Numbered from the stretch's first letter, positions 9,632 to 42,996 are shown. The stretch: DNA of 45,393 nt from Candidatus Haladaptatiplasma halalkaliphilum (GCA_019594055.1 JAFDTY010000002.1:1-45393); one strand, 5' to 3'. Translations and numbers: made by a program. The notes: generated by a model not told the origin, from the sequence alone.

Positions 9632-10863
9632 AAAACGAATATCTAGCCCTGGGCGAGGAATTGGATCCCGAAGGATACTTAATCTGCGATTACAGGGTAA
9701 AGAGCGATTTACCCATAGAAACCGCCGGCTCACGTATAGCCGAGGAGGAATCCACGGGTACGTGGACCAGACCCACGACACTTACGGAAGACATATACGA
9801 GAGATACGGTGCCAAGGTGGTCATGGCCCAAGGTAACATGGTGCGTGTGGGATATCCAGTGATCGATTTTTCAGGTGAGTTCGGAGGCGTTCCCCAGATA
9901 CTCAGCATAATAGCCGGTAACCTCTTCGGACTGGAGTCCCTACGGGGTGTAAGGCTCCAGGACATATGGATACCGAAGGTCATCACCGAAAGATACCCGG
10001 GCCCGAGGTACGGTATCTCGGGCCTTAGAAAAATACTGGATAGGCCGGAAAAGCCCCTGATAGGAACCATAGTAAAACCAAAGATAGGGTTACCGCCCAA
10101 GGAGTTTGCGGATTATGTGTACGAGGCCGGAAAGGGCGGGCTCACCAACTCAAAGGACGACGAGACCCTGGTGGACCAGGATTTCTGCCCCCTGGAGGCC
10201 CGGGTCAGTGCGGTGAGCGAGAAGCTGGACCTTCTGGAAGAAGAGGGACATCCGATGATACATGCCCACAACATTAGCACCTCGGCACATGAGATACTGG
10301 ATGCCGCGGATATCGCCCTTGAGAACGGTGCAAGGCAGTTGATGGTGGACGTCTTCACCGAGGGCTTCTCCGGGGTTCAGGTGCTTGCGGAAGATCCATC
10401 TGTGGGCGTACCACTACACGTGCACCGTGCCATGCACGGCGCATTCACCAGAGATCCCGAACACGGCATCTCCATGCCGGTGGCCTGCAAACTGGTAAGG
10501 ATGGTGGGTGGAGATTCCTTCCATATCGGAACCTACGGCACGGGAAAGATGCACGCAAACATATCGGAAGAACTGCACTCGGAGAAGGCTCTAACGGAGG
10601 AGATGCACGGTATACATCCAACGATACCCGTATCAAGCGGGGGTTTGCACCCTGGCCACATGCCCGAATTGATGGCTAAGAGCGGTAACGATGTACAGAT
10701 ACAGGCAGGGGGAGGTGTTTCGGGGCACCCTGACGGCGTCAGGGCGGGCGCTACCGCATTGATGCAGGCTGTGGATGCAGCTTTCGACGGAATACCCCTC
10801 AGGGAGTATGCAAAGAGTCATGACGAACTGAGAAAGGCACTAGAAACGTGGGGATACAGATGA
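9628..10863 (+). CDS. rbcL: Ribulose-1,5-bisphosphate carboxylase/oxygenase large subunit, form III
   Basis: The catalytic signature positions are all present: KPK(I)GL, the carbamylated-Lys block KDDE, HVHRAMHG, FHIGT..GKM, SSGGLHPG, and AGGGVSGHPDG. The gene is flanked by the two AMP-pathway genes. Confidence 0.85.
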   Translation: MKNEYLALGEELDPEGYLICDYRVKSDLPIETAGSRIAEEESTGTWTRPTTLTEDIYERYGAKVVMAQGNMVRVGYPVIDFSGEFGGVPQILSIIAGNLFGLESLRGVRLQDIWIPKVITERYPGPRYGISGLRKILDRPEKPLIGTIVKPKIGLPPKEFADYVYEAGKGGLTNSKDDETLVDQDFCPLEARVSAVSEKLDLLEEEGHPMIHAHNISTSAHEILDAADIALENGARQLMVDVFTEGFSGVQVLAEDPSVGVPLHVHRAMHGAFTRDPEHGISMPVACKLVRMVGGDSFHIGTYGTGKMHANISEELHSEKALTEEMHGIHPTIPVSSGGLHPGHMPELMAKSGNDVQIQAGGGVSGHPDGVRAGATALMQAVDAAFDGIPLREYAKSHDELRKALETWGYR

Positions 10864-12386
10864 TAGAGAGGTTGAGGGCCAGGACGATAGATATCGAGGC
10901 GGGTGACTGCAAGGTCATCCTCAACAAGAAAGATGCGGAAAAGATGGGCCTGCGGAGTCAGGGCCGTGTGAAGGTGGGCTCTTCCCATGGTCATACAGTT
11001 GCCATAGTCGAGTTGTCCGAAACCCTGGTCAAAGAGGGGGAGATAGGTGTTCTGCACAGGGTGGTCACCAATATCAAAGTCCGGGAGGGAGAGGAGCTTA
11101 CCATCGTACCATCGGGAAGGCCCAAATCCATAGATCATATACGTGAAAAACTGGAAGGCAAGGAACTATCGGAACATGCGATAAACGAGATAATCCGCGA
11201 CATAACCGATCGGAGGCTTTCGGACATAGAATTATCGGCTTATGTGTGCGGTGTATACGCACGGGGGATGAACCTCAGGGAGACCAAGGACCTTACCCTG
11301 GCCATGATCAAAACCGGGGAGACCATAGAATTCGATAAACACCCCGTATTCGACCATCACAGCATCGGGGGAGTTCCAGGTAACAAGATAACACTTCTGG
11401 TGGTACCCATAGTCGCCGCTGCCGGCCTGCTGATACCCAAGAGTAGTTCCAGGGCCATATCCAGCGCCGGAGGTACCGCGGACATATTCGAGGTACTCGC
11501 CGATGTTACCCTTTCGTTATCCCAGATCAAATCCATTACCGAAGAGATCGGAGGCGTTATCTCATGGGGCGGTGCGGTAAATCTTGCACCCAGCGACGAC
11601 CTGATAATCCGGGCGGAATATCCTCTGCGGATAGACCCCTACGCCCAGGTGCTGGCATCCGTACTGTCCAAGAAGAAGGCCTTCGGGGCGGAGTATCTGG
11701 TTATGGACATACCCGTGGGACCCAATACGAAGGTCGAGGACATGGAGCAGGGAAGAAAGTATGCCAGGGACTTCGTCACCCTGGGTGAGGAGATCGGCAT
11801 CAACGTACGCTGCGCCCTTAGCTACGGCGGCCAACCTGTGGGAGAAGGCGTAGGCCCTGCCATCGAGGCCCGGGAGGCTCTGGCGGCCCTGGAAGGAAAG
11901 GAGGTGCCCAACAGTTTGATAGAAAAATCCGTGGAGCTGGCGGGCATGATACTCGAACAGGGCGGGTTACCTGAGGGAAGAGGAAAGGAAAAGGCAAGAA
12001 AGATACTTTCCGGCGGGGCCGCACTGAACAAGATGAAAGAGATAATTCAGTACCAGGGAGGCGACCCCGAGGTTACGTCGGACGACGTACCCATAGGCAA
12101 ATATTCCCAGGATATATTGTGCAACAGGGACGGGTATGTGGGCGCCATAAACAACCGCTGTGTCATCGAGATCGTACGGGCCGCCGGAGGGCCCCACGAC
12201 AAGGGCGCCGGGTTCATACTGAAGAAGAAGAGGGGTGACAAGGTGGATAAGGACGAATTGCTCTACACCATCTACTCTGAAAACAAGAGCAATCTGAAGG
12301 AAGCGGTCAAACTAGCCAACCATCTGAAACCCTTCTTCATAGAAGGTATGATACTGGAAAAGCACCCATCCTATCGCATGGTCTGA
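10860..12386 (+). CDS. deoA: AMP phosphorylase (thymidine phosphorylase family)
   Basis: The N-terminal AMPpase-specific domain (IDIEAGDCKVILNKKDAEKMGL) is present. So are the blocks HSIGGVPGNK, VVPIVAAAGL, SSRAISSAGGTAD, WGGAVNLAPSDD and YGGQPVGEGVGPAIEAREAL. I chose the ATG at 10860 because it overlaps the rbcL stop (ATGA); the track start at 10848 is non-ATG. Confidence 0.85.
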   Translation: MIERLRARTIDIEAGDCKVILNKKDAEKMGLRSQGRVKVGSSHGHTVAIVELSETLVKEGEIGVLHRVVTNIKVREGEELTIVPSGRPKSIDHIREKLEGKELSEHAINEIIRDITDRRLSDIELSAYVCGVYARGMNLRETKDLTLAMIKTGETIEFDKHPVFDHHSIGGVPGNKITLLVVPIVAAAGLLIPKSSSRAISSAGGTADIFEVLADVTLSLSQIKSITEEIGGVISWGGAVNLAPSDDLIIRAEYPLRIDPYAQVLASVLSKKKAFGAEYLVMDIPVGPNTKVEDMEQGRKYARDFVTLGEEIGINVRCALSYGGQPVGEGVGPAIEAREALAALEGKEVPNSLIEKSVELAGMILEQGGLPEGRGKEKARKILSGGAALNKMKEIIQYQGGDPEVTSDDVPIGKYSQDILCNRDGYVGAINNRCVIEIVRAAGGPHDKGAGFILKKKRGDKVDKDELLYTIYSENKSNLKEAVKLANHLKPFFIEGMILEKHPSYRMV

Positions 12387-24983: not shown

Positions 24984-26483
24984 TCACGGTTTACCGAACT
25001 TTAATATGGTCTTGAGTTTTCGCTTCTTGTACAGGTTGGGATTGAAGAGGACAACAGCGGTGAATATTTCAAGCCTGCCTATCCACATCAGTATGGTCAG
25101 TACCACCCTCCCCGCCGTGGGGACTGCAGAGTAATTGTTCATGGGTCCCAGCAAGCCCAGGGCGGGCCCCACATTGCCTATGCATGATGCGGATGCAGAC
25201 AGGGCGGATAGAATGTCCAGGCCCATCGCGGTGAGTATGAGCATGCCCACAATAAATACCATCAGATAGGCAGCAAAGAAAACGACTATGTTGTCAAGAG
25301 TTTTTTCGTCCAAAACCTGGTTGCCCAACCTTACCACCAGCACTCTTCTGGGGTTGATGAATTCCCGGATCCGCCTGAACACCATCTTGATTATAAGAGT
25401 GACCCTCAATACCTTCAAACCACCGCCCGTGGAGCCTGCCGAGGCCCCAACGAACATCAATATCAGCAGTATCAGGCGCGCAAGGTCTGGCCATGCATCG
25501 TAGTTGGCGCTGAAGTATCCCGTGTTCGATGCGAATGCCACCACCTGGAAGGTTGCCGCCCTGAAGGATTCCATCAGGGGCTGCCCAGTGTCTATCAGAA
25601 GGCAGGTGACGATGAGAATACCGGATGCGATTATACCTAGAAAAACATGAAGTTCGGTGTTGGAAAAGGCCTTGCGTATGTTACCCATGAAAACCTGATA
25701 GTGCAGTGAAAAATTTATGCCACCCAGAAGCATGAAGAAGATTATTATCCACTGCACTCCGGATGGAAAGTATCCGGCACTGGAAGTATGTGGTGAAAAA
25801 CCTCCGGTGGACATGGTGGTGAGGGAATATAGAAAGGCTTCATAAAAGGCGGTTCCCGCACCCAGCAAAAGTATGAGCATGCAAAGTGTTAGTAGCCCGT
25901 AAATATACCACAGTATCTTTGCGGTTTCCATTATCTTCGGTTTCAGGCGGGTGATGGATAGTCCCGGGGCCTCGGCCTCCAGCAGCCTCAATCCCCCTTT
26001 GCTGAGCTTGGAGAGCACCGCAACGGAAAGAACGATCACTCCCATGCCGCCTATCCACTGGAGGATGGCCCTCCACATGAAGATGCTCCTGTGATGCTGT
26101 TCAAGTGGATAGGGGAGTATGGTGGCCCCTGTGGTGGTTATCCCGGACATGGCCTCGAAGTAGGCGTCCACGGGGGAGGTCAAGGTTCCCGTCAACATGA
26201 AAGGTATTGCGGATATGGCCGCCAGTACCAGCCATGTGGTGCTTACCAGCACTATGGCCTCATTGTGGTAGAAGTCCTCCGCCTTACCGAAGGCTTCCAG
26301 GGGATATCCTATGGTGATGGTGAAGGAGGCCATGAAAAGGAATATAAGGGCATTCACCGGTATGAATCCGTGGAACAGGACCCCTTCCTGATACCAAAGA
26401 GCCGGAAACACCGGTAAAAAAAAGGCAAAGCCGAACAGCTTGAGTATGGTCCCCAGATTACCGATGATGATATTCCATCTCAT
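24984..26483 (-). CDS. trkH: Trk-type potassium uptake protein TrkH
   Basis: The 499-aa polytopic membrane protein has repeated selectivity-filter-like segments (TTTGAT, STGGFS, SNTGYF, STGGGLK). It lies directly downstream of trkA. Confidence 0.85.
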   Translation of the reverse strand: MRWNIIIGNLGTILKLFGFAFFLPVFPALWYQEGVLFHGFIPVNALIFLFMASFTITIGYPLEAFGKAEDFYHNEAIVLVSTTWLVLAAISAIPFMLTGTLTSPVDAYFEAMSGITTTGATILPYPLEQHHRSIFMWRAILQWIGGMGVIVLSVAVLSKLSKGGLRLLEAEAPGLSITRLKPKIMETAKILWYIYGLLTLCMLILLLGAGTAFYEAFLYSLTTMSTGGFSPHTSSAGYFPSGVQWIIIFFMLLGGINFSLHYQVFMGNIRKAFSNTELHVFLGIIASGILIVTCLLIDTGQPLMESFRAATFQVVAFASNTGYFSANYDAWPDLARLILLILMFVGASAGSTGGGLKVLRVTLIIKMVFRRIREFINPRRVLVVRLGNQVLDEKTLDNIVVFFAAYLMVFIVGMLILTAMGLDILSALSASASCIGNVGPALGLLGPMNNYSAVPTAGRVVLTILMWIGRLEIFTAVVLFNPNLYKKRKLKTILKFGKP

Positions 26484-27815
26484 CTAAAATAAATCCTCCA
26501 CGCAACTAATCTGGTCCTTCAGCACGAAGAGTATCACCTCGTCACCCTTTTGGAGAGCCACCTTCCCACTGGGGATGATGGTATCTTCCCCCCGGATGAT
26601 GGCCCCCACGATGCATTCATTCGGTAAATTACTCGTTTCCAGGCTTTTACCCAGTATCTTCGATTCTTCCGTTACATTCATCTCCAGTATGTATAGGTCA
26701 CCACCGTGTATCGATATGGCTTTGAGTGGATTTAGCTCCCTGGCCAGTCTGAGCATCATCTGTGCCGTCTGTAGCTGTGGGGAGGCTGCCATGTCGATGC
26801 CCACGGTTTCGATCAGTGATTTTAGGCCCAGTTCCTTGACTACCGCGATGGTCTTTTCAACACCATATATCTTCGCCAGCAAGCTGACCAGCACGTTGAA
26901 TTCCTCCGACGGTGTGGTGGCCGCAAAGGCATCTATACGGAGTATGCCTTCCTCGATAAGTATTCGTTTGTCTCTAGCATCTCCATGTATTATCTCAAGA
27001 CCTACCAGGGATTCGGCTGCCTTCCTAGCCCTTTTTTTGGATACCTCGATTATCTTGACGGTCATACCCCTTTTATCGAGTATACGAGCAACATTGATGC
27101 CTATGTTAGTTGCACCCACTATCATCACATTTTGATGTTTTCTTTCTCTCTTTGTTCCAAGGAGTTGTCTCATCCTTTTTGAGCCTTTTACCCCGTCCAT
27201 CATCACGATCAATTTGTCGTCATCCTTTAACACCGTATTGCCCCGAGGTACGAGGATATCATTTTTCCGAATTATAGCGCCGAGGTTCACATTCGATGGT
27301 AGGGCGATATCGGAGATCCTTTTACCGAGTACCTTTGACTTCCGCATGACTTTGTACTCGATCACATTTATCCTTTCACCCATGGACAAGTTCATATCGA
27401 TGGCCGCAGGGGTGCTGATGATGTTGGCTATCTTCTTCGCTATGAGCAACTCTGGCGATATGGCGAAATCGACACCTATATTCGAAAAGCGTGTGGATAC
27501 CGGCTTTGAAATGTATTCCAACCCGTTTATCCTGGCCATGGTCCTGCATCTCGCCGCCTTGGCCATGGAGCACGTCACCAGGTTCGTCTCGTTATCGTCG
27601 GTAACCGCGAAGAAATGATCCCTGTGTTTAAGGTCCAGGGAATTAAGAAGTTCGGGTCTTGCACCGTTACCTTTTACTACCTTAACATCCAAAGACCTGG
27701 CCCTTTCGCAAGCTCTATCTTCTCTATCTACTACGATAACATCGTGGCCCTTTCTACTGATGGATTCGGCGAGTTCGTATCCCACTTCTCCGGCACCTAT
27801 TATTACAGCCTTCAT
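26484..27815 (-). CDS. trkA: Trk system NAD-binding regulatory protein TrkA (two RCK N/C modules)
   Basis: Two Rossmann motifs are present (MKAVIIGAGEVG and VMIVGATNIG), each followed by an RCK_C-like segment. The ATG at 27815 is preferred; the track start at 27824 is a GTG. Confidence 0.85.
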   Translation of the reverse strand: MKAVIIGAGEVGYELAESISRKGHDVIVVDREDRACERARSLDVKVVKGNGARPELLNSLDLKHRDHFFAVTDDNETNLVTCSMAKAARCRTMARINGLEYISKPVSTRFSNIGVDFAISPELLIAKKIANIISTPAAIDMNLSMGERINVIEYKVMRKSKVLGKRISDIALPSNVNLGAIIRKNDILVPRGNTVLKDDDKLIVMMDGVKGSKRMRQLLGTKRERKHQNVMIVGATNIGINVARILDKRGMTVKIIEVSKKRARKAAESLVGLEIIHGDARDKRILIEEGILRIDAFAATTPSEEFNVLVSLLAKIYGVEKTIAVVKELGLKSLIETVGIDMAASPQLQTAQMMLRLARELNPLKAISIHGGDLYILEMNVTEESKILGKSLETSNLPNECIVGAIIRGEDTIIPSGKVALQKGDEVILFVLKDQISCVEDLF

Positions 27816-27850
27816 GCTTCTCACAGTTTTTTTAAGACTATGCCCAATCC

Positions 27851-28147
27851 CTATAATAATTTATCCAAAGGTTTACTTTTTAACACCTTGCTGTGGGGTC
27901 TTACCTTCACCGAGCAACCTTCGGCCGTGATCAGTTTTTTCATGTCCTCCTTCCTTATCACGACACTCCCCTCATCCACCAACTGGTCGGAGTAAATATT
28001 CACCAGTATATCCTTTTCCTCCGAGCTCAGTACCACCAAAGAACCTTCTTTGATACCAAGCTTGGCAAGGTTGTTTTTGTTGATCCTTGCACGCCCACCC
28101 ATGGTAACCGGGCTTTCCTCAACATTGAGATTAAGACTTCCGGACAT
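27851..28147 (-). CDS. Stand-alone Cdc48/VAT N-terminal-like double-psi beta-barrel protein
   Basis: The 98-aa product is LNLNVEESPVTMGGRARINKNNLAKLGIKEGSLVVLSSEEKDILVNIYSDQLVDEGSVVIRKEDMKKLITAEGCSVKVRP. It follows the VAT-N/Cdc48-N pattern: L-R-V-x-E-x(n)-G-x-[AV]-R-[IL]-x(5)-L-x(3)-G-x-V-x-[IL] ... G-x-[IV]-R-[IM]-x(3)-[MR]-x(5)-G-x-x-V-x-V. Confidence 0.55.
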   Translation of the reverse strand: MSGSLNLNVEESPVTMGGRARINKNNLAKLGIKEGSLVVLSSEEKDILVNIYSDQLVDEGSVVIRKEDMKKLITAEGCSVKVRPHSKVLKSKPLDKLL

Positions 28148-28217
28148 AACCGTTGGATATAGCCCTTATCGTTTTTAAGATTTATCCCGCATTTCCAAAA
28201 TATACGGGTGAAAGAGA

Positions 28218-28901
28218 TCACGCCCTGAATTTTCCTTCCAGAAACTTTTCTGCAGCCCTGGAACAAGTATCATGGGTCAATCTCCGGTCTAGTTCCGGTT
28301 TAACAAGCAGCCTTTTTAGGGCGTGAACAAGCCCTGTCAGGTTCCCGGTAAAATCCCAGTCCTCCAGATACGCCATACGTATGATACCACCATCCTCCGG
28401 TGGGAGTATGTTGGGGTGATAAATCCTGGATTTCCAGATCACCCTGGGTGCTTCGAAGGGATATCCCCGTCCCAGACGTATGTCCAACTGATGGGTGAAA
28501 GTCATGGCTAGCGAATTTCCCACCGTCACCGGGCCGGGTGTATCCTTGAACACCAAGGTAAGATACAGGATGTCCCCCTCCCGGACCGTGTCCATATCCA
28601 GATCCATGCCTTTAAGGGAGTCTATCTCGTTTTCGATCCTCTTTCTCCACATATCTTCGGGGAGGGTTCTCTCCGTGTCTGTGCGTATCAGGGTTAGTTC
28701 CTCGCCCCCCTCAACACCGGTGGCCGACCATATAACATCCTTTTGGACCTTCCTGGATGAAAGGTGTAGTTCATAGTTACCTTCCAATCCCCAATACTTC
28801 ACCAATCCCTCGATGGTGTTATCCACCTTTTTTCGAGGGTCAACCTCTATATCGACCCGTTCTCCGCCTTTCTCGTCGAATACCTTCAACCTTATGGACA
28901 T
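28218..28901 (-). CDS. Possible beta-grasp (ubiquitin-like) domain fused to a UBC/E2-like core that lacks the catalytic cysteine
   Basis: The C-terminal half reads GRGYPFEAPRVIWKSRIYHPNILPPEDGGIIRMAYLEDWDFTGNLTGLVHALKRLL. It fits the E2 signature YPF-x-PP-x-V-x-F-x(3)-I-YHPNI-x(n)-G-x-I-C-x(3)-L-x(3)-W, but has Arg where the Cys belongs. The N-terminal 75 aa (MSIRLKVFDEKGGERVDIEVD...GGEELTLIR) have a beta-beta-alpha-beta-beta alternation. The start is set at the ATG at 28901, 23 nt downstream of a TATA-like box; the track ORF extends to 28982. Confidence 0.6.
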   Translation of the reverse strand: MSIRLKVFDEKGGERVDIEVDPRKKVDNTIEGLVKYWGLEGNYELHLSSRKVQKDVIWSATGVEGGEELTLIRTDTERTLPEDMWRKRIENEIDSLKGMDLDMDTVREGDILYLTLVFKDTPGPVTVGNSLAMTFTHQLDIRLGRGYPFEAPRVIWKSRIYHPNILPPEDGGIIRMAYLEDWDFTGNLTGLVHALKRLLVKPELDRRLTHDTCSRAAEKFLEGKFRA

Positions 28902-28923
28902 GGAGAGAACACAAGACAGGGTA

Positions 28924-28934
28924 GATATAGCTTT
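28924..28934 (-). promoter_or_regulatory. TATA-like box for the E2-like gene in the divergent intergenic region
   Basis: AAAGCTATATC on the minus strand lies about 23 nt upstream of the ATG at 28901. Confidence 0.35.
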
Positions 28935-29124
28935 TTTTCCCTTTCTCGGCGCATGTTCTTCCCGAAAACTATATATCGTCAATTATCTTAGAGTCTGTTC
29001 CATATATATGCTCCGGGGCATTACACAGATTTAGGATTACCATATTCATGAATGCCATGGGTAGTAAAACTTATTATTTCCCGGAAGCATACCCGGTTAG
29101 AAAGAACAACGGAGATGTAAAAGA

Positions 29125-32100
29125 TTGTCAGGGAAGTTCCTCAAGGCTAGGCAACTGGCCAAGGAGATGGAAGAAAAAGCAAAGAAAACGGCCGAAGAGA
29201 AGAAAAAAGCAACTGATAGTTTGCAAAAGGCCGAAGATTTGCTGGATTTTTCCCTGGAACTGGGGGTTGACGTGGGTGAGGCCAAGGACCTCATAGACAA
29301 CGCTTCCAAGAAGATCGTTGACATGCGCTGGGAAGAGGGTGTGGAGGATCTGAACAAGGCTATGGAAGTACTGAGTCAAGCGAACTTCAGTGTACTCGAT
29401 GATTTTTTAGACGGTACAAAGGAAATACACGAACTCATGGGGGATACGGAGAGGTGTGATGGCTCTCGGAAAAGTATGGAAAGTGCCATTGAACTTGCCG
29501 GAGAAGGTAAATTCAAAGAGGCCTTGGAATTAGCCAAAGAGGCCATGGAACTAGCCAAGCTAGAGATCCACGAGAAGCTGACGGACGAATTACATTCGGT
29601 TGAAACCCATATGCTCACCCTCGAGGGTATGAATAAGGATACCACCGAACTCAGGGATATACTCGACCAGGCCAGGGCTTTGGCGGAAGAAAATAATTTC
29701 GGTGAGGCATCCACACTAATATCCGGCGTGAATGAAAAGCTCCACGGAGATCTACAGGAATCCCTCAACGAGAGCATATCACGACTTGAGATCCTGGTGA
29801 CAAAAATCCGTAACGATGGTGAGGATACAACCGATGTTGAGGCCTCCATAAGCAAGGCCAAGTCACGTGCTAAAAACCTGGATATCGACGGTGCCATGGA
29901 GATGATAAAGGAGGCCCAGGGTATCATAAACGAGTCTCTGGAGAATGTGGTGTTGGTAAGATTCCAGGAACTCAGGTCGGGCATGGATGATGCCATGGCG
30001 ATAGAGGCCGACATGGGACCGGTGAACATACTTTTGAAACAGGCCGAATCCATGAGGGACGAAAGGCTTTTCAGCGAAGCCTACAATATAATTGAAGATG
30101 CCTTCGAAAAGCTCGGGGAGGCAAAATTCCACCGGGTTTTAAGGACCATAGCCGAGTCCAGGGAGAATTTTATCAAGGCAAAGAATATTGGTATCGATAT
30201 ATCCGAACCCATGGAATTGCTCAACAAGGCAAGAGATGCTCTGAAGGAAGGGAATCACAAGGGCGCCCTGGATTGGGCCATGGCAGGAAGAAGCAAGGTC
30301 AAGGAACTGGTCAAGGAATACGATGAGATCGAGGCCAGGATAGAACGATCCAAAAAGATGATCGCCGACTTGAAGGAGACAAACATAGACCTGGAGGTTG
30401 CCGGAGAGATCATATCCGAGGCACAAGGTTACTTTTTGGATAAAGATTACCAGACCGCCGTGGAAAAACTGGATGAGTTCCAAGAACACGCTGATAAGGT
30501 AGCCTACGGCAAAGTGATGGAACTAATCGAGGAATTCGAGATGAATATGATGACTGCCGATGAATTGGGTCTGGATGTGGCTGAGCACTCGGAAATGCTT
30601 GAAAAATCCATCGCCCAGATCAAATCGGGTATATATTTGGAGGCCGGAAAGATAGCCCAGGAGAACATCGGCGAATTGAGTGAAGCTATATCCAGGGAAA
30701 TGAAAGTCCGGTACGAGAACATCAGAGTACTGGTGGAGAAGATCAGAAAGGACCTGGGTGAAGACGAGGACCTATCCGAATTGAACCGGGTAACGGAGGA
30801 CATGGAAAAAGTGAGAGATGTCATGGAGAAAGGCTTTCACAGGGAAGCCATCGGCATAATTCAAGGCATTTCCGAGAAACTGGAGCGCTGGCAGGTGGGT
30901 GAAGCGGACGGAGCCCTTGCAGATGCCAGGGAACTGGTGGAACTCGTGGAAAGACTCGGGATAGAGAACATAGACCTGAAAGATTACATGAACAATATCG
31001 AAAAGGCCGAAAAGGCCCTTGAGAATGAAGATTACACCACAGCCATACAAACCTCGCACTCTATCGTGGATGAATTGAACAACAGGATGCGAAAGACCTC
31101 GGAAGAACAGTTCGCACATGCAAAGATGGAGGTGGTGAAGGCAAAGAAGGCTGGGGTTGACATAGAGGAATCGAGAAAGAGACTGATAGACTGCAAGAAG
31201 CAGATAAGGGATGAAAACTATGCGGAGTCCATCAAACTCTCCATGAAGATCCAGGAGGAGGCTCTTACCCTCAGGGAAAAAAGGAGAAGCAGCTACGAGA
31301 TAATCACCAGAATATCCGAGGAACTGACAAGGTTGAGACGGGAGGAGGGATTGAAGGACGTAGGTGCCGCCAAACAGATACTGTTAAAATCGAAGGAAAG
31401 TTTCCAGAACAGGGATTACACCCAGGCCGAGAAACTTGCCGAGCAGGCGATGCTCAAGATAGAAGAGGTTCACGGCAGGTATAACTACGAGAACAAGGAG
31501 AAAAATCTCAAGGAACTGATCGCCGAAGCCGAGGCCATCGGTATGGATGCTTCCCAGGAGGAGGATGCACTAGAGCTGTGCATCAGAAATTCGAATAGGG
31601 GTGAATATGAAATTGCCGTGGAGAAATTGAGCGAAACAATAGAATCACTTGTAAGCAAGATGGAAGGATATGTTAAGCCCGAGATAGAAAGGACAAAGGA
31701 CATAATCGACTCTGCCAAGGATATAAAGATAGACCTCTCTGGACCGGAAACGAAACTAAATGAAAGTATGGAGTTATTGAAGAAGAAGGATTTCAAGAAT
31801 TCCGTAGAGAAGATAGAGGCGTGTCGAAGGGAGATCGAGGATATACGTGACAAAAGCAGAAAGGCGGCCAGCCAGGTTAAACAGGTCAAGGAACGGATGA
31901 CGGAGGCAAAAGACCTTTATGCCGATGTAACCGAAGCGGAGATAATATTGGGCAGGGCCATGGATGCACTCAAAAAGGACGATTATGATCGGACGATAAC
32001 AGAGGCATTGAATGCGGAGAAGAGCATATCCCGTGCGGAAAAAATAAGGGTTGAACGATTGCTGGCGGCCTTCGAATCCAAAACAAGTGATATACGAAGG

Positions 32101-33483
32101 CAAGGGATCAATACCGCTCTGGCCGATAACCTTTTGCGACGTGCCGAGAAGGCCATGGAGAAGGGTAGTTATAAAGAGGCGATCAACCTTGCCATGCAGA
32201 GCGAGGGAGAGCTGGAAAGGATAGAGCTTCAACAGGATATCTCCAAAAGATGCATATCAACCACCAGTGACAAGGTGAATGCTGCCAAGGAGGTCGGCAT
32301 AAAGGTGGAAGATGCGGACAAATTGCTGAAACAGGCGATCCAGGCCTATCAGGCCGGCTTCTATGTAAAGGCCTTCGACAATGCGGTGAAGAGCGGGGAC
32401 GTACTCAACAAGACAGTCAAGGCCCACGATAGCACCAAGGAACTCATGGGATTGCTTGACAAAGCGGTCAAGAGCTGCGAATACCTCGGATGGGATGTTC
32501 AAGATGCGAAGAAGTATATGACGGAAGGGGAGCAGGCATTCCAGCGCGGTCTTTACGTGAAAGCACTTGTGAGCACCAGGAAGGCAGAAAAGTCACTGGT
32601 CTCCTTGGAAAAAGACATACCTGACAAACTGAAGGAAACCGAGAACATAATAAAGAGGATGAAGCAATTGAAACATGATGCCGGCGGATCCGAAGAATTG
32701 CTCAGGCAGGCCAAACTATCCCAGGGCATAGGTGACGTACTAGAAACCTTCATGTTAATAGCGGATGCCATGAAGAAAGCCGGTGTAGATGTGCATAACG
32801 AGTACAACAGTTCCATCACCGAGGCCGTATCCCTGCTGGCAAGCGCGCACAAATTCGGTGCCGATATAGGGGAGGCGGAAAGACTTGTGGAGGAAGCGAG
32901 AACCCTGGAGTTCGAAGACATCGGCAAGGCAAGGGATATGGCCATGGAAGCGCTTAAAGCCGTTGAAAACACCCTTGACCCCTACAGCCCCAAACTGGAG
33001 ATGGAGTTCAAGGGTCGGATAGATCCGGAAGGATGGAGTAAGGTGACCTTCGTGATGACCAATACCGGTAAGGGTGTAGGCAAATCACCATCACTGGAGT
33101 TCCAGGGATGTGAACATAAGGACATGGTAATGCCTTCCATGTTGAAGGCCGGGGAAACCAAGGAGATCGAAGTGGAACTCAAGGCAATCGACGAGAAGGT
33201 AACCGTAAAGGGAAGCGTAAAGAGGGTATTCGATGACAAAAGCATCGAAGATGTTCTGGAAATAGAGCCCAAGGCCGGTTCCTACCAAGTCCAAAAATCT
33301 ACGGGTGAGGAGAAATGCGACCTCTGCAAGGGGAACATAAAGAAGGGACTGGATATGATAGTCTGTAGTTGTGGCGAAACCTACCACAAAACATGCGGTG
33401 AAAGGGGAAACGAGTGCAAGAAATGCGGCACCGGTTTCGCACCAAAGAAGGTCACATCCAAGAGGGTTTCCCTCAAATTGTGA
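29125..33483 (+). CDS. Giant (1452 aa) helical-repeat protein with C-terminal beta-sandwich and C4HC3 zinc finger (paralog family A)
   Basis: About 20 units of the same motif as in 6406..8646 are present, for example NIGIDISEPMELLNKARDALKEGNHKGALDWA and RQGINTALADNLLRRAEKAMEKGSYKEAINLA. These are followed by a beta-rich segment (KVTFVMTNTGKGVGKSPSLEF...ETKEIEVELKA) and then CDLC-x12-CSC-x4-H-x2-C-x6-C-x2-C. The start is a TTG at 29125 with GGAG 11 nt upstream; an alternative ATG lies at 29167. Confidence 0.75.
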   Translation: MSGKFLKARQLAKEMEEKAKKTAEEKKKATDSLQKAEDLLDFSLELGVDVGEAKDLIDNASKKIVDMRWEEGVEDLNKAMEVLSQANFSVLDDFLDGTKEIHELMGDTERCDGSRKSMESAIELAGEGKFKEALELAKEAMELAKLEIHEKLTDELHSVETHMLTLEGMNKDTTELRDILDQARALAEENNFGEASTLISGVNEKLHGDLQESLNESISRLEILVTKIRNDGEDTTDVEASISKAKSRAKNLDIDGAMEMIKEAQGIINESLENVVLVRFQELRSGMDDAMAIEADMGPVNILLKQAESMRDERLFSEAYNIIEDAFEKLGEAKFHRVLRTIAESRENFIKAKNIGIDISEPMELLNKARDALKEGNHKGALDWAMAGRSKVKELVKEYDEIEARIERSKKMIADLKETNIDLEVAGEIISEAQGYFLDKDYQTAVEKLDEFQEHADKVAYGKVMELIEEFEMNMMTADELGLDVAEHSEMLEKSIAQIKSGIYLEAGKIAQENIGELSEAISREMKVRYENIRVLVEKIRKDLGEDEDLSELNRVTEDMEKVRDVMEKGFHREAIGIIQGISEKLERWQVGEADGALADARELVELVERLGIENIDLKDYMNNIEKAEKALENEDYTTAIQTSHSIVDELNNRMRKTSEEQFAHAKMEVVKAKKAGVDIEESRKRLIDCKKQIRDENYAESIKLSMKIQEEALTLREKRRSSYEIITRISEELTRLRREEGLKDVGAAKQILLKSKESFQNRDYTQAEKLAEQAMLKIEEVHGRYNYENKEKNLKELIAEAEAIGMDASQEEDALELCIRNSNRGEYEIAVEKLSETIESLVSKMEGYVKPEIERTKDIIDSAKDIKIDLSGPETKLNESMELLKKKDFKNSVEKIEACRREIEDIRDKSRKAASQVKQVKERMTEAKDLYADVTEAEIILGRAMDALKKDDYDRTITEALNAEKSISRAEKIRVERLLAAFESKTSDIRRQGINTALADNLLRRAEKAMEKGSYKEAINLAMQSEGELERIELQQDISKRCISTTSDKVNAAKEVGIKVEDADKLLKQAIQAYQAGFYVKAFDNAVKSGDVLNKTVKAHDSTKELMGLLDKAVKSCEYLGWDVQDAKKYMTEGEQAFQRGLYVKALVSTRKAEKSLVSLEKDIPDKLKETENIIKRMKQLKHDAGGSEELLRQAKLSQGIGDVLETFMLIADAMKKAGVDVHNEYNSSITEAVSLLASAHKFGADIGEAERLVEEARTLEFEDIGKARDMAMEALKAVENTLDPYSPKLEMEFKGRIDPEGWSKVTFVMTNTGKGVGKSPSLEFQGCEHKDMVMPSMLKAGETKEIEVELKAIDEKVTVKGSVKRVFDDKSIEDVLEIEPKAGSYQVQKSTGEEKCDLCKGNIKKGLDMIVCSCGETYHKTCGERGNECKKCGTGFAPKKVTSKRVSLKL

Positions 33484-33487
33484 TCTC

Positions 33488-34018
33488 ATGGACCTTCTTA
33501 TACACGCATGTTGCGCGCCCTGTTCCACCTATTGTGTGAAAATTTATACGGATAGTTACAGGGTTGCGCTCTTTTGGTTCAATCCGAATATACATCCGTA
33601 CACCGAGTACAAAAAAAGATTGGATTCCATGCTATCCTACCATGTGGCGGAGCTCGTGTTAAAGGACGAGTATCTTCTGGAAGAGTTCTTTGAGAGGACG
33701 GCGAAGGTTGATAACCGATGCTCGGCCTGTTACCGATGGAGGCTGATGGAGACCGCGAAGAGCGCCTCCGAGAACGGTTTCGACGCCTTCACCACCACCC
33801 TTTCCATCTCCCCTTATCAAGACCATGAACTCATCAGAAGGGAAGGTGTAGCTGCCGGCAATATCCACGATGTGGAATTCGTCTATAACGATCTAAGAAA
33901 TGGTTTCAGGGAAAGTCGCAACACGGCCCGAGAGATCGGACTTTACATGCAAAAATACTGTGGGTGCATCTTCAGCGAGGCCGAGAGATACCTTAAGGAT
34001 CAGTGCCCTTCTCGGTAG
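33488..34018 (+). CDS. queH: QueH-like epoxyqueuosine reductase (DUF208)
   Basis: The N-terminus is MDLLIHACCAPCS. The blocks FWFNPNIHPYTEY, CSACYRWRL, FTTTLSISPYQ and KYCGCIFSE are characteristic of DUF208/QueH. The start is set at the ATG at 33488, 5 nt after the stop of the upstream gene. Confidence 0.75.
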   Translation: MDLLIHACCAPCSTYCVKIYTDSYRVALFWFNPNIHPYTEYKKRLDSMLSYHVAELVLKDEYLLEEFFERTAKVDNRCSACYRWRLMETAKSASENGFDAFTTTLSISPYQDHELIRREGVAAGNIHDVEFVYNDLRNGFRESRNTAREIGLYMQKYCGCIFSEAERYLKDQCPSR

Positions 34019-38917: not shown

Positions 38918-38987
38918 ATCTTTATGTGCCTTGGACCTCCCTGACCGGCGCAAATTTTTTATTACCCGAATCGCCTGATTGGACGTA

Positions 38988-40259
38988 ATGAAGGAAGAGT
39001 CAAGTGAGTTTATATTCCAGTTTTTCGCGTCGGCCTTTGGGGTTATCGTTCTGTTCCTGGCCGCACTAAGGAGCGACTTGCTGCTCTCATTCCTAAGCAT
39101 CGTTTTCCTTGTTTTGATGAATAAGACCCTGGATATCGAGCCCGAACCCTACCGTAAATATTGCCTGAAAAACCTTAAAGGAGATCTATTCTTCTGGTGC
39201 TTTTTTCCGTTGTTGCTGGGTGCCATAGGTGCCACCGGGCTTATCGACATGTACTTCTACTTCGTGTTTTTCAGGGATATCGCCTTCACCACTCTTGCAG
39301 GGGTGTACGCCTTCATGTTGCTGGTGAATCTCGAATACTATACCGATTTTCGGGCCAACCGTCCCTTTACGCTGTATTTTGTGGTGATGGTTACAATGAC
39401 ATCGGGTGCCATCATCGGGGTGAGCCGTTTTCTCCAGGATGTATATCTGGGTACTATATTCATCTCCGGGAATACTCATATGATGGTGTTTTTTATCATA
39501 ATCACCATCCTTAGCGTAGCCTTTGCCGTCAACATCTACGGTTACATCAAAACCTACGAATTCTTCCCCATATCGAGCATGACATCGGATTTCCGCATCA
39601 AAATGAATTTCAGAGAGCGAAGGGCGGATTTTCTTGACTTCCTCAACGAACTGTTCGGCAAGTACGATCGCCCTTCCTTCATGCTGGCCGCGAGGGTACT
39701 GCAGATATGTATCCTCGCAACGGTGATCTACGGTGTATATATGAGAAGTATTGTGGTTTTTTCATGGAGTGCCTTCTCGCTCATGTTTGCCATATCGCCC
39801 GATCTATTCGCAAGGAGGATCTACAAGAGAGCACCATCCGTGCTTTATCTCTGGATCGCAGTGTCAACCTTCATATTCGCCTTCGGCAGACCCATGGGGT
39901 TCTACACTCGTTTCCCCTTCTGGTCGGGGCTAACTCACTGTGTCACAGGCACGTTGGTGGGGGTTCTGGTATTTTCGTTACTGGTCTATCTAAACTGGCT
40001 CCCCGAAGACATCTACATACCCCCTTATCTCCTCGTGGCGGTGGTCCTCGTGGCCATATTCCCCATAGGGGTTATCTGGGAGATATCGGAGTTTTACGTG
40101 GATACCCTTTACGGTCGTGGCCTCCAGGAAGGGGTATTTGACACCACAACTGACCTTCTGTGCAACTTCCTAGGCACGGTGATATCCATGTGCATACTAT
40201 TACTGATGAAGCTGGATTGGACTGCACGGAAGGCTTTGGCGGAAGGCCATGGAGGTTGA
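38988..40259 (+). CDS. Polytopic integral membrane protein, unknown function
   Basis: About 10 hydrophobic segments are present. The C-terminal segment is PIGVIWEISEFYVDTLYGRGLQEGVFDTTTDLLCNFLG. The ATG at 38988 is preferred over the TTG at 38979. Confidence 0.65.
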   Translation: MKEESSEFIFQFFASAFGVIVLFLAALRSDLLLSFLSIVFLVLMNKTLDIEPEPYRKYCLKNLKGDLFFWCFFPLLLGAIGATGLIDMYFYFVFFRDIAFTTLAGVYAFMLLVNLEYYTDFRANRPFTLYFVVMVTMTSGAIIGVSRFLQDVYLGTIFISGNTHMMVFFIIITILSVAFAVNIYGYIKTYEFFPISSMTSDFRIKMNFRERRADFLDFLNELFGKYDRPSFMLAARVLQICILATVIYGVYMRSIVVFSWSAFSLMFAISPDLFARRIYKRAPSVLYLWIAVSTFIFAFGRPMGFYTRFPFWSGLTHCVTGTLVGVLVFSLLVYLNWLPEDIYIPPYLLVAVVLVAIFPIGVIWEISEFYVDTLYGRGLQEGVFDTTTDLLCNFLGTVISMCILLLMKLDWTARKALAEGHGG

Positions 40260-40305: not shown

Positions 40306-41841
40306 CTATAGATATCCGTCCGGCTTGCTTATATCATCGTCTTCCATGGTGTAATCCATGGTCTTACCGCCGTCGCACTCGGTTTTGCAGGCACGGACGA
40401 AGTCCGAATGTGTCACCTCTTCTTTGCCAAGGGCCAGGGCCTGCCGGGCGGCATTGAGTACCGCGTTCCTGATCTGCCCACCGGTGAACTCGTATTCCCT
40501 GGCAAGCTCCTTCAGGTCAACATCGTCTGCCAGCGGCAATTCTTCCGGTATGTGGACCTTCCATATATTCAGCCTGGCATCCGCCTCGGGCCTTGGGAAC
40601 ATGACCTTCATGGCCATCCTCCGTTCCAGGGCCCTGTCCATACCCCGGGCAAGGTTAGAGGTGAGTATCAGCACACCGCTATGTTCCTCCATCTTCTGAA
40701 GGAATATGTTCACTATCCTGTTTTCCGTTGAATCCACACCGGAGCCCCTGTTACCCCTGTGGGCAAGTATACCGTCTGCCTCGTCCACCAGTAGTATCAC
40801 ATCTTCCCTTTCAACGATGTCAAAAAGAGATTCAACGTTCTTTTCCGTTTCACCGTAATAACAGTTGATCAAATGATCGAACTCAACTATGTAAACTTCC
40901 ATCCCAAGCTCTTTACCCAATGCCTTGGCGGTGAGGGTTTTGCCGGTACCGGAGGGTCCTGCGAACAGTATGTTTATACCGGTTCCGGCGATCTTTTTCA
41001 GATTCCATTCCCTGTACAACTTGTCCTTCTCTTTGATCTGTGTCATCAAAGCTTGTATATCTCTTCTGACACTGTCCTTGAGCACTACATCAGTCATGGA
41101 GAAAGACAGATCGGCCTTCCTCACCTGTTCCGAACCTCTATCATGTCTGCGTGGTCTTCCACGATGCTTCGTTTCCAGTTCATCTTCATCCATGATCACC
41201 GCTCCCAGCATCATGTCGACCAGATCCTCGTTTATCTCGAAGTAAGTGCCTTCCGTGCTCCGACCTGTGTGGCGCCTATGCATATTTCTAGGGATGAAAC
41301 GATCCACAGACCTCGAACTCCGGGATACGATCATGTTCTTTTGGGAGAGCGTGCTGTTCTCGCTCAGCAGTATCCTCCCCTCCTCGATGGGAGTTCCGTG
41401 GAGCACGTTGAGCAGGGCGATGAGCACCTCGCCTTTCACTGCAGGTTCCAGGGTATCTATGCCCACACCCCTGGCAGAATAGAGTAGCTTCACGATCGTT
41501 TCCTCCTGTTGTGAAATTTTGAAGTCTTCAAGTACACTTGTGGATGTGAAGGGTTCGCCCAAGGTTTTTTCGCTTTTCTTTCTCATATCTTCCAGAGATC
41601 CCATACGGTTCCGTATGTCTTCTGAAAAGCTATGGAAACCTTCCCGGGTGGGACGTGACATAAGATAATTTGCCTTTTCGATCAACTCCCTGCCTACGCT
41701 ACCAAGTGCCCGCAGATAATGGCCGTTGTCCTGGTAGAGTTCCAAGTCGTCCGTTGGACCTTCGGAACCCATAAGCTTCAACTTTTCCCTGTCGGCCTGC
41801 CTGCGGATGTTCTCATCATCGTATCCCGGGCTAATATGCAT
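40306..41841 (-). CDS. Single-module classical AAA+ ATPase with a 270-aa uncharacterised N-terminal region
   Basis: Walker A is ILFAGPSGTGKT and Walker B is ILLVDEAD. The second region of homology is TSNLARGMDRALERR. An AGGAGG box lies directly upstream (aaaacaggagggATG), 12 nt after the stop of the upstream gene. Confidence 0.85.
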   Translation of the reverse strand: MHISPGYDDENIRRQADREKLKLMGSEGPTDDLELYQDNGHYLRALGSVGRELIEKANYLMSRPTREGFHSFSEDIRNRMGSLEDMRKKSEKTLGEPFTSTSVLEDFKISQQEETIVKLLYSARGVGIDTLEPAVKGEVLIALLNVLHGTPIEEGRILLSENSTLSQKNMIVSRSSRSVDRFIPRNMHRRHTGRSTEGTYFEINEDLVDMMLGAVIMDEDELETKHRGRPRRHDRGSEQVRKADLSFSMTDVVLKDSVRRDIQALMTQIKEKDKLYREWNLKKIAGTGINILFAGPSGTGKTLTAKALGKELGMEVYIVEFDHLINCYYGETEKNVESLFDIVEREDVILLVDEADGILAHRGNRGSGVDSTENRIVNIFLQKMEEHSGVLILTSNLARGMDRALERRMAMKVMFPRPEADARLNIWKVHIPEELPLADDVDLKELAREYEFTGGQIRNAVLNAARQALALGKEEVTHSDFVRACKTECDGGKTMDYTMEDDDISKPDGYL

Positions 41842-41853
41842 CCCTCCTGTTTT

Positions 41854-42996
41854 TCATGTCTTGTACCCCCTGGAATCCAAGTCCCTCCATACCTCGTTCT
41901 GGGTGCTCTTCGGGTTCTCCATCCTGTAGATGGTGGGCCTCATGGGGTGGTTTCTCGGCGATGCAAAGCGATGATTGGCGCACAGTGTCTGGAGTGTCAG
42001 ACTCATGGTTGAGTTTGCGTTCATGGTAACCCGGGTTTCCCCCTGTGTCACCAGATTCTGTACCGCCGCTTTGGGGTCTATGACCTCGAAGAGGTATCCC
42101 TTAGGCACTTTTACTGTTACCTGTTGGTTTGTATTGTTCTCCAGCAGCAGATCGACCATGAGACCCGATTCGTTTCTTCCTCCCTTTGCATATCTTACGG
42201 TTATCATCTTTGAGCGTACCATGACCGGTAGGGAGTCCTCAGAGTCTTCTTCCACCAATCCCATGACCTCCGGTGAAATTTTCCGGATCTTTTCGGGAAG
42301 AGCGCCACCCCTGTAGCCCGCCCTCTCCAATGCGAAGGATCTGATCAATGTTCGACCGCCAACACCGTCTTGCCCGTCGGGTATGTACCTTATCTCCGGT
42401 AACGTTTCCCAAACTCCACGGTCAACAAGTTCCGTTTCATTGTTTTCTTCATCGTCGAAAACGAACAACCTTCCATGCTGCTCTTCCCCTTGTATCTCCA
42501 GTTCTCCCGTATCCTTGTTTACCAACCAGCTCTCCACGAAGACCTTGTTGTCCCGATACGTATGGATCATGAACTGGGAAGGTATGCAGATATGATCTCT
42601 GTGAAAACTCCTGTGTAGTGGAGATACGATCACAAATACTACGAAATATATCCGTTCGTCCATGTTTTCTACCAATCCTATCATGGAAGATTCCAACTCC
42701 CTGATACCAAAATTCTCCGTCTCCGCCAGCTCACCTACGGTGAACAGATTCACGCTGTCCTTTGAATGTGTTCTACGGTCCCTTACCAACTCGTCCGCGG
42801 AAGGTGGCGACCACCTATCCATGGGTAATAGACCGGCATCGGCATCCACCATTTCATGTACACCGTGATCCTCCATCAACGAGATCATATCCCCCTTTAA
42901 CATCAGTCTCTTTTGATCTTCCAGGGTCTCTCCGCTCACCAGCACGTAGACCCCGGGGCACACTTCGCCCAATCCTTTTTTTCTGTTATCCGGCAT
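41854..42996 (-). CDS. Hypothetical protein (380 aa), operon partner of the AAA+ ATPase
   Basis: The ORF is long and clean with an acidic central region. The beta-rich C-terminal part is LLLENNTNQQVTVKVPKGYLFEVIDPKAAVQNLVTQGETRVTMNANSTMSLTLQTLCANHRF. I could not assign a family with confidence. Confidence 0.7.
   Translation of the reverse strand: MPDNRKKGLGEVCPGVYVLVSGETLEDQKRLMLKGDMISLMEDHGVHEMVDADAGLLPMDRWSPPSADELVRDRRTHSKDSVNLFTVGELAETENFGIRELESSMIGLVENMDERIYFVVFVIVSPLHRSFHRDHICIPSQFMIHTYRDNKVFVESWLVNKDTGELEIQGEEQHGRLFVFDDEENNETELVDRGVWETLPEIRYIPDGQDGVGGRTLIRSFALERAGYRGGALPEKIRKISPEVMGLVEEDSEDSLPVMVRSKMITVRYAKGGRNESGLMVDLLLENNTNQQVTVKVPKGYLFEVIDPKAAVQNLVTQGETRVTMNANSTMSLTLQTLCANHRFASPRNHPMRPTIYRMENPKSTQNEVWRDLDSRGYKT

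Follow-up and report, generated by a model that had tools for sequence, protein, structure and literature searches.

A ubiquitin-like/E2 fusion without the catalytic cysteine, encoded opposite a giant RING-ended repeat protein in Thermoplasmata: probably a non-catalytic variant of archaeal ubiquitin-like systems

Organization of the locus

The window considered here is a stretch of 45,393 nucleotides from Candidatus Haladaptatiplasma halalkaliphilum (GCA_019594055.1, JAFDTY010000002.1:1-45393), in which three adjacent genes, here named A, B and C, had been noted for domains best known from ubiquitin and Cdc48 biology. Gene A codes for a 227-residue protein in which a ubiquitin-like (Ubl) domain is joined to an E2-type UBC fold lacking the catalytic cysteine; gene C, divergently transcribed from A, codes for a protein of 1,452 residues (about 164 kDa) ending in a RING-type zinc finger; gene B produces a stand-alone double-psi beta-barrel of 98 residues. 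As judged from sequence and predicted structure, A and C probably form a new, non-catalytic variant of the archaeal ubiquitin-like systems, and B is best placed with the trkA-trkH genes that follow it.

The three open reading frames (ORFs) were confirmed where the first-pass annotation of the window had placed them (Table 1), together with the gaps that it gave: 70 nt lie between A and B, and the spacer between the divergent starts of A and C, described as a promoter region of about 220 bp, measures 223 nt. The start codons of all three genes are supported, since orthologs align from residue 1 of each. Word-indexed searches with A and B returned the window's own proteins only; the family is seen with exhaustive phmmer searches, which for gene A gave 120 representatives; of these, 14 match over the full length with E < 1e-30. 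For the loci of relatives, one genome per species was scanned and the 80 best genome matches were taken, with 351 weaker matches lying outside this set. All but two of the 80 are labelled as Thermoplasmatota (Thermoplasmata, Methanomassiliicoccales, Thermoplasmatales); the exceptions carry the labels Methanofastidiosia (L059) and Weeksellaceae (L057), the latter probably a case of mis-binning. In the window's own clade the flanks of 30 loci were examined, over as much as 10 kb or as far as the contig reached, which in several cases was short. The loci of this lineage derive mostly from metagenome-assembled genomes (MAGs) of soda-lake and hypersaline sediments, judged from contig names.

Table 1. 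Coordinates, strand and supporting evidence of the features of the A/B/C region (positions counted from the first letter of the window)
Feature	Position	Strand	Basis
Gene A, 227 residues	28218..28901	-	ORF
Gene A residues 1-78, ubiquitin-like beta-grasp domain, in-frame fusion, no di-glycine at junction	28668..28901	-	AlphaFold2 topology, profile match, junction alignment
Gene A residues 80-227 and stop, UBC-fold pseudo-E2	28218..28664	-	UQ_con, PDB E2 matches, HPN kept, catalytic Cys replaced by Arg
Divergent A/C intergenic region, putative promoter	28902..29124	.	Several TATA-like AT-rich elements (sequence reading); arrangement kept in all C-containing loci
Gene C, 1,452 residues	29125..33483	+	ORF
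Gene C residues 33-1282, about 20 tandem 63-residue acidic helical repeats	29221..32970	+	Iterated repeat hidden Markov model; consensus IEELEELIEKAKELGIDVEEAEELLEEAKEALKEGDYEEAIELAEEAEEELEE
Gene C residues ~1290-1392, conserved non-helical block, motif N-x-G-x-GV-x-K-x-P	32992..33300	+	8 orthologs
Gene C residues 1398-1434, C4HC3 cross-brace zinc finger, Prok-RING_1 type	33316..33426	+	Pfam, ligand alignment
Gene C basic C-terminal tail, ending ...SKRV-x-LK[IL], and stop	33427..33483	+	Conserved in orthologs
Gene B, 98-residue stand-alone double-psi beta-barrel	27851..28147	-	AlphaFold2, Foldseek; best placed with trkA-trkH operon
trkA	26484..27824	-	ORF; TrkA_N/TrkA_C Pfam on orthologs
trkH	24984..26483	-	ORF; TrkH Pfam on orthologs
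QueH-family gene	33488..34018	+	Pfam QueH E 1.5e-52; starts 5 nt after C stop

Gene A: a ubiquitin-like domain fused to a UBC fold without catalytic cysteine

The UBC core that had been proposed for the C-terminal part of A is supported by several comparisons. The Pfam family UQ_con (PF00179) matches residues 137-215 with 36.1 bits against a cut-off of 27, and a phmmer search of the PDB retrieves 210 E2 sequences (best E 1e-5). The AlphaFold2 (AF2) model, built from ten family members with a mean pLDDT (predicted local distance difference test) of 88.6, displays a beta-beta-alpha-beta-beta-beta topology over residues 3-73 followed by a UBC fold; when it is compared with the PDB by Foldseek, the top 34 matches are all E2 enzymes, with template-modelling (TM) scores on the target of 0.51-0.71, and nearly all of the 50 listed are E2s, with one non-E2 protein at rank 35. 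The suspected N-terminal beta-grasp is equally confirmed, both by the secondary structure that DSSP assigns to the model (strands 3-9 and 15-20, helix 26-37, strands 43-47 and 68-73) and by homology: a profile of residues 1-78, run against 1,238 proteins of related loci, retrieves only its own orthologs and, at E 7e-9 to 3e-4, the stand-alone Ubls of the sister operons described below.

The E2 signature HPN (H162-P163-N164) is invariant in the clade. The position of the catalytic cysteine is occupied by Arg in the window, as the first-pass reading of a Cys-less core implied, and by R, H, K, N, E, D, G or S across the relatives of the clade; the active-site region reads HPNILPPEDGGIIRMAYL in the window versus HPNIMPPEDGGYVCTKLL in 68 sister loci. 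The junction between the two domains reads ...LIRTDTERTLPEDMW in A, where the sister Ubls end in ...LIPDPEGG-stop, so the junction alignment leaves no exposable C-terminal Gly-Gly in the Ubl of A. The alignment of ten sequences, at 32-58% identity, contains 24 invariant columns, among them the only cysteine of the protein, C213.

Two further observations concern individual relatives. In a sub-branch of the Cys-less clade (L009-L011), Ser is found at the canonical position and a Cys one residue later (GG-N-L-S-C-S-Y-L), which could be either a shifted nucleophile or a coincidence. In one soda-lake assembly, A is split into an ORF of 98 residues for the Ubl and one of 88 residues for the UBC part (L087:7277-7949); the gene is intact in a near-identical contig from another run (L088:6172-6861), and the split is probably a frameshift error of the assembly.

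Origin of gene A from an E1/Ubl/E2/JAB operon

Unfused relatives of A are found in the 68 sister loci, where the E2 is a separate protein of about 170 residues, in all cases with HPN...GG-x-[VIL]-C. The gene before it encodes a Ubl of some 80 residues, which ends exactly in ...PDPEGG-stop, and in 20 of 33 scored cases the E2 start is in frame with the Ubl at 0-15 nt from its stop, often with no gap at all. A ThiF-type E1 (171.7 bits) lies upstream and a JAB peptidase (50.2 bits) downstream; adjacency to the E2 is seen for the Ubl in 66/68 loci, for JAB in 65/68 and for the E1 in 43/68. This compact operon is widespread in Thermoplasmatota, including Methanomassiliicoccales (L014-L081; for example L051:123-2000 and L025:9000-12000), and nothing specific on a ubiquitin operon of Thermoplasmatota or Methanomassiliicoccales was found in the open literature. 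The 13 fused Cys-less sequences are monophyletic and sister to the 68 Cys-containing E2s when a tree is built by neighbour joining, a rough method, with human UBE2D2 as the root. These comparisons demonstrate, at the level of sequence, that A arose by fusion of the Ubl and E2 genes of a sister-type operon.

Among the more distant representatives, Ubl-E2 fusions that keep both the junction GG and the catalytic Cys are also present (P0020, P0044, P0049, P0055, P0064, P0070, P0074); they carry long basic or proline-rich C-terminal tails and may be evolutionary intermediates or self-processing precursors.

The remaining components of the operon are missing around A. No E1, JAB or free Ubl occurs in the flanks of the 30 window-clade loci, except for an unlinked ThiF-family gene about 7 kb from the A homolog of L008; in the window itself a Pfam scan of the 34 long ORFs (at least 143 aa) identified neither ThiF nor JAB, in accordance with what had been noted at the outset for these two families. 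As previously annotated, then, this is no canonical cassette for conjugation.

These data bear directly on the possibility that A and C still take part in a working conjugation pathway, in which an E1, a Ubl with GG and perhaps an active E2 would be encoded elsewhere in the genome, C would be a RING E3, and A would act either as a cofactor of the ubiquitin E2 variant (UEV) type or as an enzyme using C213. Mms2 and Uev1 are UEV cofactors of this kind for Ubc13. The invariance of HPN and C213 in the clade is in line with such activity, and C213 aligns with the loop-8/helix-3 junction of UBE2D2 (UbcH5; about L119-V120), a region that borders the active site; the displaced Cys of L009-L011 and the ThiF-family gene of L008 point in the same direction. 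However, C213 is equally conserved in the 68 Cys-containing sister enzymes, which argues against a clade-specific replacement, and its candidacy as a relocated catalytic residue peculiar to the clade was dropped for this reason, catalysis through it being kept as a minor possibility; the canonical position holds no conserved nucleophile, and no free Ubl, E1 or JAB was found linked to A in the flanks of the 30 loci. In addition, the 13 MAGs of the window clade gave no second E2 locus among the 80 best matches, a weak argument given the 351 weaker ones outside that set. We consider a still active pathway unlikely.

Gene C: a long repeat array ending in a RING finger

Most of the C protein is made of helical repeats. 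An iterated hidden Markov model recognizes 21 units between residues 2 and 1282, with a period of 61-68 residues and E-values for each from 1e-17 to 2e-3, and the repeat region is acidic (isoelectric point 4.9). The repeats correspond to no Pfam family; with known repeats they share only a 20-residue TPR-like motif, '...kGdYeeAie.aeeA..', found in consensus TPR designs. The scaffold had been described as MIT/TPR-like: its helical-repeat nature and the short TPR-like motif hold, and the two family assignments do not. An MIT identity was rejected, as Pfam gives no MIT match for C or its 20 repeats and the 60 best PDB profile matches, out of 82, include no MIT chain; a 34-residue TPR identity is excluded by the period.

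The array is followed by the conserved non-helical block, which is probably beta-rich; for the 'beta-sandwich' assigned to it, support comes from a single weak match, that of one ortholog to CARDB (E 0.0015). The zinc finger follows the pattern C-x2-C-x12-C-x-C-x4-H-x2-C-x6-C-x2-C, in which ligands 6 and 7 are separated by only 6 residues and ligand 8 is followed by a Gly, and its eight ligands are invariant in 8 orthologs. Prok-RING_1 (PF14446; cut-off 29.1) scores 26.3 bits in full-length C and 30.1 on the isolated C-terminus and is matched by 8/8 orthologs; moreover, when the ortholog profile is aligned with the RINGs of Arkadia and RNF165 (E 1e-4), every ligand has its counterpart. The eight-ligand C4HC3 pattern proposed in the first-pass annotation is supported. 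In the C-terminal tail, alignment columns S165, K166, R167, V168 and L170 are invariant.

A related finger was detected beside canonical operons. Divergently upstream of the Ubl-E2-JAB operon in L055 and L057 lies an unannotated ORF for a 52-residue RING protein (MNQTAEMAHFCTLCQGKIK...CPQCGTPM), whose finger is 42% identical to that of C (L055:1635-1748 and L057:717-830, both on the minus strand). The JAB-cluster gene of these two operons is unusually long (346 residues). Giant proteins encoded near canonical operons (clusters c41, c101 and c116) were considered as relatives of C and rejected, having neither the RING pattern nor any similarity.

Linkage of A and C across relatives

Gene C is found divergent from A in every locus with sufficient contig, about 18 distinct loci, with identities to the window of 38-61% for C and 31-59% for A; the first-pass proposal is thus sustained for this pair. 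A metagenome search started from the C-terminus of C added six more loci, from soda-lake or similar sediments judging by contig names, and A is present wherever sequence is available. No C without A was found; L096 and L098 lack A, their contigs ending inside C. The two genes are never interrupted: insertions fall between A and B, and in L012 it is the genes beyond QueH, the gene that follows C, that differ. Purifying selection acts on both A and C, as indicated by the 24 invariant columns of A and the eight invariant zinc ligands of C. A degenerate relic, which had been left as an option, was rejected in view of intact ORFs and invariant motifs in about 18 loci at 31-61% identity.

The alternative to a functional link is simple co-inheritance, with A, C, QueH, B and trkAH as neighbours in one family-level lineage and A and C acting independently. 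Indeed, nearly all loci have the whole block in one collinear order (L44e-S27e-eIF2alpha / QueH-C / A / B-trkA-trkH), all these loci belong to one clade, and A stands alone in L008; adjacency by itself is therefore weak, because it cannot separate function from inheritance in a block that is syntenic throughout the clade. The link between A and C gains weight from three other facts: a RING is the cognate partner of an E2 fold, the divergent RING/E2 layout recurs in the unrelated L055 and L057, and the pair remains intact, with no genes inserted, where the gene order around it has shifted (L012 and the loci with insertions between A and B). Together with the failure to find C without A, this makes mere synteny improbable as an explanation.

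The A homolog in L008 has other neighbours. This Cys-less Ubl-E2 fusion (L008:8104-10491) occurs without C and B; genes for a Ras/Rab-like small GTPase and for an uncharacterised 313-residue protein lie divergently from it, and mutL- and mutS-like genes follow the fusion.

Gene B and the trkA-trkH operon

The Cdc48-N-like double-psi barrel proposed for B is real as a fold. CDC48_N (PF02359) reaches 28 bits with B, against a cut-off of 35.1, and matches 15/15 members of the family; the AF2 model (pLDDT 82) superposes with a TM score of 0.77 and root-mean-square deviations of 1.2-2.0 on the barrels of archaeal VCP and on p97/Cdc48 N domains (7dg9, 4kdi and 9m4g, each at 0.77). It resembles the N domain of AMP phosphorylase equally well (4ga5, TM about 0.77), and the N-terminal domain of the AMP phosphorylase encoded in the window is weakly similar to B in pairwise comparison (E 0.004). 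B has neither the Nc subdomain nor an AAA ATPase, and the next gene is trkA.

This stand-alone barrel always directly precedes trkA (window 24984..28147, minus strand; L085:7805-9435). The gap between B and trkA is 27-59 nt in all loci and TrkA is 62-86% identical across them. In L004-L007 and L089/L090 one or two opposite-strand genes (1.3-1.4 kb) separate A from B, and the gap to trkA is still 33-59 nt; in L085/L086, on contigs of 11-12.7 kb, B-trkA is found without A or C.

These patterns weigh on the grouping made in the first-pass annotation, in which A, B and C belong to one module; on that view B would serve as a Cdc48-N-like adaptor recognizing the Ubl of A. B does adjoin A at 31-130 nt in most loci, its family is confined to the same lineage, and in several of the top structural matches the p97/Cdc48 N domains bind UBX or UBXL partners. 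Yet B parts from A and C in the loci just mentioned, and the A-B spacer of the window has AT-rich TATA-like elements and T-runs of its own. In p97, UBX partners bind in a cleft between Nn and Nc, and B is devoid of Nc. A three-gene module is thus very improbable, and the grouping is not upheld for B. Since B tracks trkA and separates from A and C, its connection with Cdc48 biology amounts to the shared fold. We are fairly confident that B belongs with trkA-trkH rather than with the A/C pair, probably as the first gene of this potassium-uptake operon, and its position suggests an undescribed small subunit or regulator of Trk potassium uptake in this lineage.

A possible role of the A/C pair

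The derivation of A and C from the ubiquitin system, advanced in the first-pass annotation, is supported by their domains and by the sister operons, and a non-catalytic, adaptor-type role, one of its options, appears to be the best reading. In the ancestral state, the Ubl and the E2 were separate proteins of an E1/Ubl/E2/JAB operon, and their two genes became fused in the lineage of the window. With the loss of the di-glycine the Ubl could be neither released nor activated, and with the loss of the catalytic Cys no thioester could form at the canonical site; E1 and JAB are no longer linked to the locus. A keeps the UBC fold, the HPN motif and the loops that face an E3. Its conserved UBC surface and the constant presence of a RING partner point to a stable complex of A and C without a covalent bond: A most likely docks on the C-terminal RING of C and may permanently imitate a charged E2~Ubl that cannot be discharged. 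C, with its roughly 20 helical repeats, would provide an extended acidic rod or scaffold, and the pair would be a structural or adaptor complex rather than a ligase.

Several observations weigh against this model. Two features important in the small RING finger protein of Caldiarchaeum (PMC5654768), the helix Trp and the 'linchpin' Arg/Lys, are missing from the RING of C. The L055 RING, which stands beside a canonical operon, has the same short spacing between ligands 6 and 7 and the same Gly, and it too lacks the Trp and the linchpin. A pseudo-E2 with a structural role only would not be expected to keep HPN and C213 invariant, so that some remaining chemistry is conceivable. L008 has a Cys-less A homolog with no C within 10 kb, and the collinearity of the block from L44e to trkH offers an explanation of the pairing by descent. 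On balance, we slightly favour the view that A and C are a dead offshoot of the E1/Ubl/E2/JAB operon whose products work together as a structural or adaptor complex, with B excluded. A bolder version, in which the uncleavable Ubl-E2 clamps permanently on the RING that tips the rod of twenty repeats, to give a cytoskeleton-like or scaffold assembly in this Thermoplasmata lineage, is put forward tentatively and seems rather doubtful.

Other genes in the window

Immediately downstream of C, the QueH-family gene is another constant neighbour. The distance from the last codon of C to the start of QueH (stop codon included) is -1 to 24 nt in 21/21 covering records, about 17 distinct loci including L012, and C and QueH are probably co-transcribed. 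QueH proteins are epoxyqueuosine reductase-like, so that a giant RING protein is paired with a tRNA-modification-type Fe-S enzyme; a non-enzymatic scaffold reading of A/C would add, as a possibility, a link to tRNA or nucleoside chemistry through this probably co-transcribed gene. An anti-phage defence system was also considered and dropped, as PADLOC gave no match for A, B, C or QueH.

At 40306..41841 (minus) a 511-residue protein contains one Cdc48-family AAA domain (E 5e-38 to p97/Cdc48) after an uncharacterised N-terminal region of about 250 residues; its gene is flanked by 38979..40259 (plus) and 41854..42996 (minus), neither with a Pfam match. As a partner of the locus it was rejected: it lies 7 kb off, with unrelated genes between, and is absent from orthologous loci. 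No ESCRT (endosomal sorting complex required for transport) genes were seen in the window. Other genes include an archaeal AMP-salvage cluster at 8714..12386 (plus), with ribose-1,5-bisphosphate isomerase (IF-2B family), form III RuBisCO and AMP phosphorylase; two adjacent ORFs of 255 and 400 residues at 111..2053 (minus), with multiple HTH_28/HTH_23/HTH_Tnp_1 domains, up to three or more copies per protein, which showed no catalytic domain of a transposase; and two proteins rich in zinc fingers, one an HhH protein of 317 residues with FCS/BED-like fingers at 3493..4446 (minus), the other of 746 residues at 6406..8646 (plus), where zinc ribbons at the N-terminus are accompanied by a FIMAH-like segment.

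Comparison with known systems

In Caldiarchaeum subterraneum a single operon encodes ubiquitin, E1, E2, a small RING finger protein and an Rpn11/JAB peptidase (PMC3082918, PMC5654768); the RING-E2 pairing is functional and the small RING finger protein is a working E3 (PMC5654768). The A/C locus shares with the operons of Caldiarchaeum and Asgard archaea a beta-grasp Ubl, a UBC fold and a C4HC3 RING gene adjoining the E2-fold gene, and the ORF layout of L055 and L057 is that of the small RING protein of Caldiarchaeum. It differs in the fused Ubl without GG, in the missing Cys and in the absence of linked E1 and JAB, so that a conjugation cascade cannot run on the A/C parts alone. Moreover, in place of a small RING protein of about 50 residues, such as the L055/L057 ORF encodes, the A/C locus has a RING that makes up the final 4% of a repeat protein of 1,452 residues. 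Prokaryotic RINGs are described as typically C4HC3 (PMC11354881), and the finger of C agrees with Prok-RING_1 in ligand pattern and, as an isolated fragment, in sequence score, full-length C falling just short of the family cut-off; unlike that family, it is mounted on an array of about 1,250 residues of a previously unclassified 63-residue repeat, followed by a putative beta domain.

A UBC fold without catalytic Cys is also typical of UEVs and pseudo-E2s, such as Mms2/Uev1, TSG101/Vps23 and the Asgard UEV-Vps23, for which binding rather than catalysis is expected (bioRxiv 10.1101/2023.07.25.550441). A, however, derived independently from a Thermoplasmatota E2, keeps HPN and carries an N-terminal Ubl; furthermore, UEVs pair with ESCRT-I or Ubc13, whereas A pairs with a RING protein. 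As for B, the barrel is that of the Cdc48/VAT/p97 N domain, here stand-alone, without Nc or AAA and with trkA as its partner. In the searchable literature no paper was found on an uncleavable Ubl-E2 associated with a 164-kDa RING-ended repeat protein, in agreement with the first-pass annotation, which knew of no described system with this architecture. The parts of A/C thus appear to be of known kinds, from archaeal ubiquitin-like systems, UEV-type pseudo-E2s and Prok-RING_1, and the combination appears to be new.

The Thermoplasmatota operon extends E2-based conjugation in Archaea past Aigarchaeota and Asgard, and seems to be poorly documented in the searchable open literature. Within this one phylum three states can be compared: separate Ubl and E2 in a full operon; fused proteins with GG and Cys; and fused proteins without GG, Cys, E1 or JAB. 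The third state is still under selection and has gained a giant RING partner. It can be regarded as a natural experiment in which ubiquitin machinery turns non-catalytic, comparable to the UEV in the ESCRT-I line of Asgard archaea and eukaryotes, and a stable look-alike of E2~Ubl together with its cognate RING could aid structural work on RING-E2~Ub recognition.

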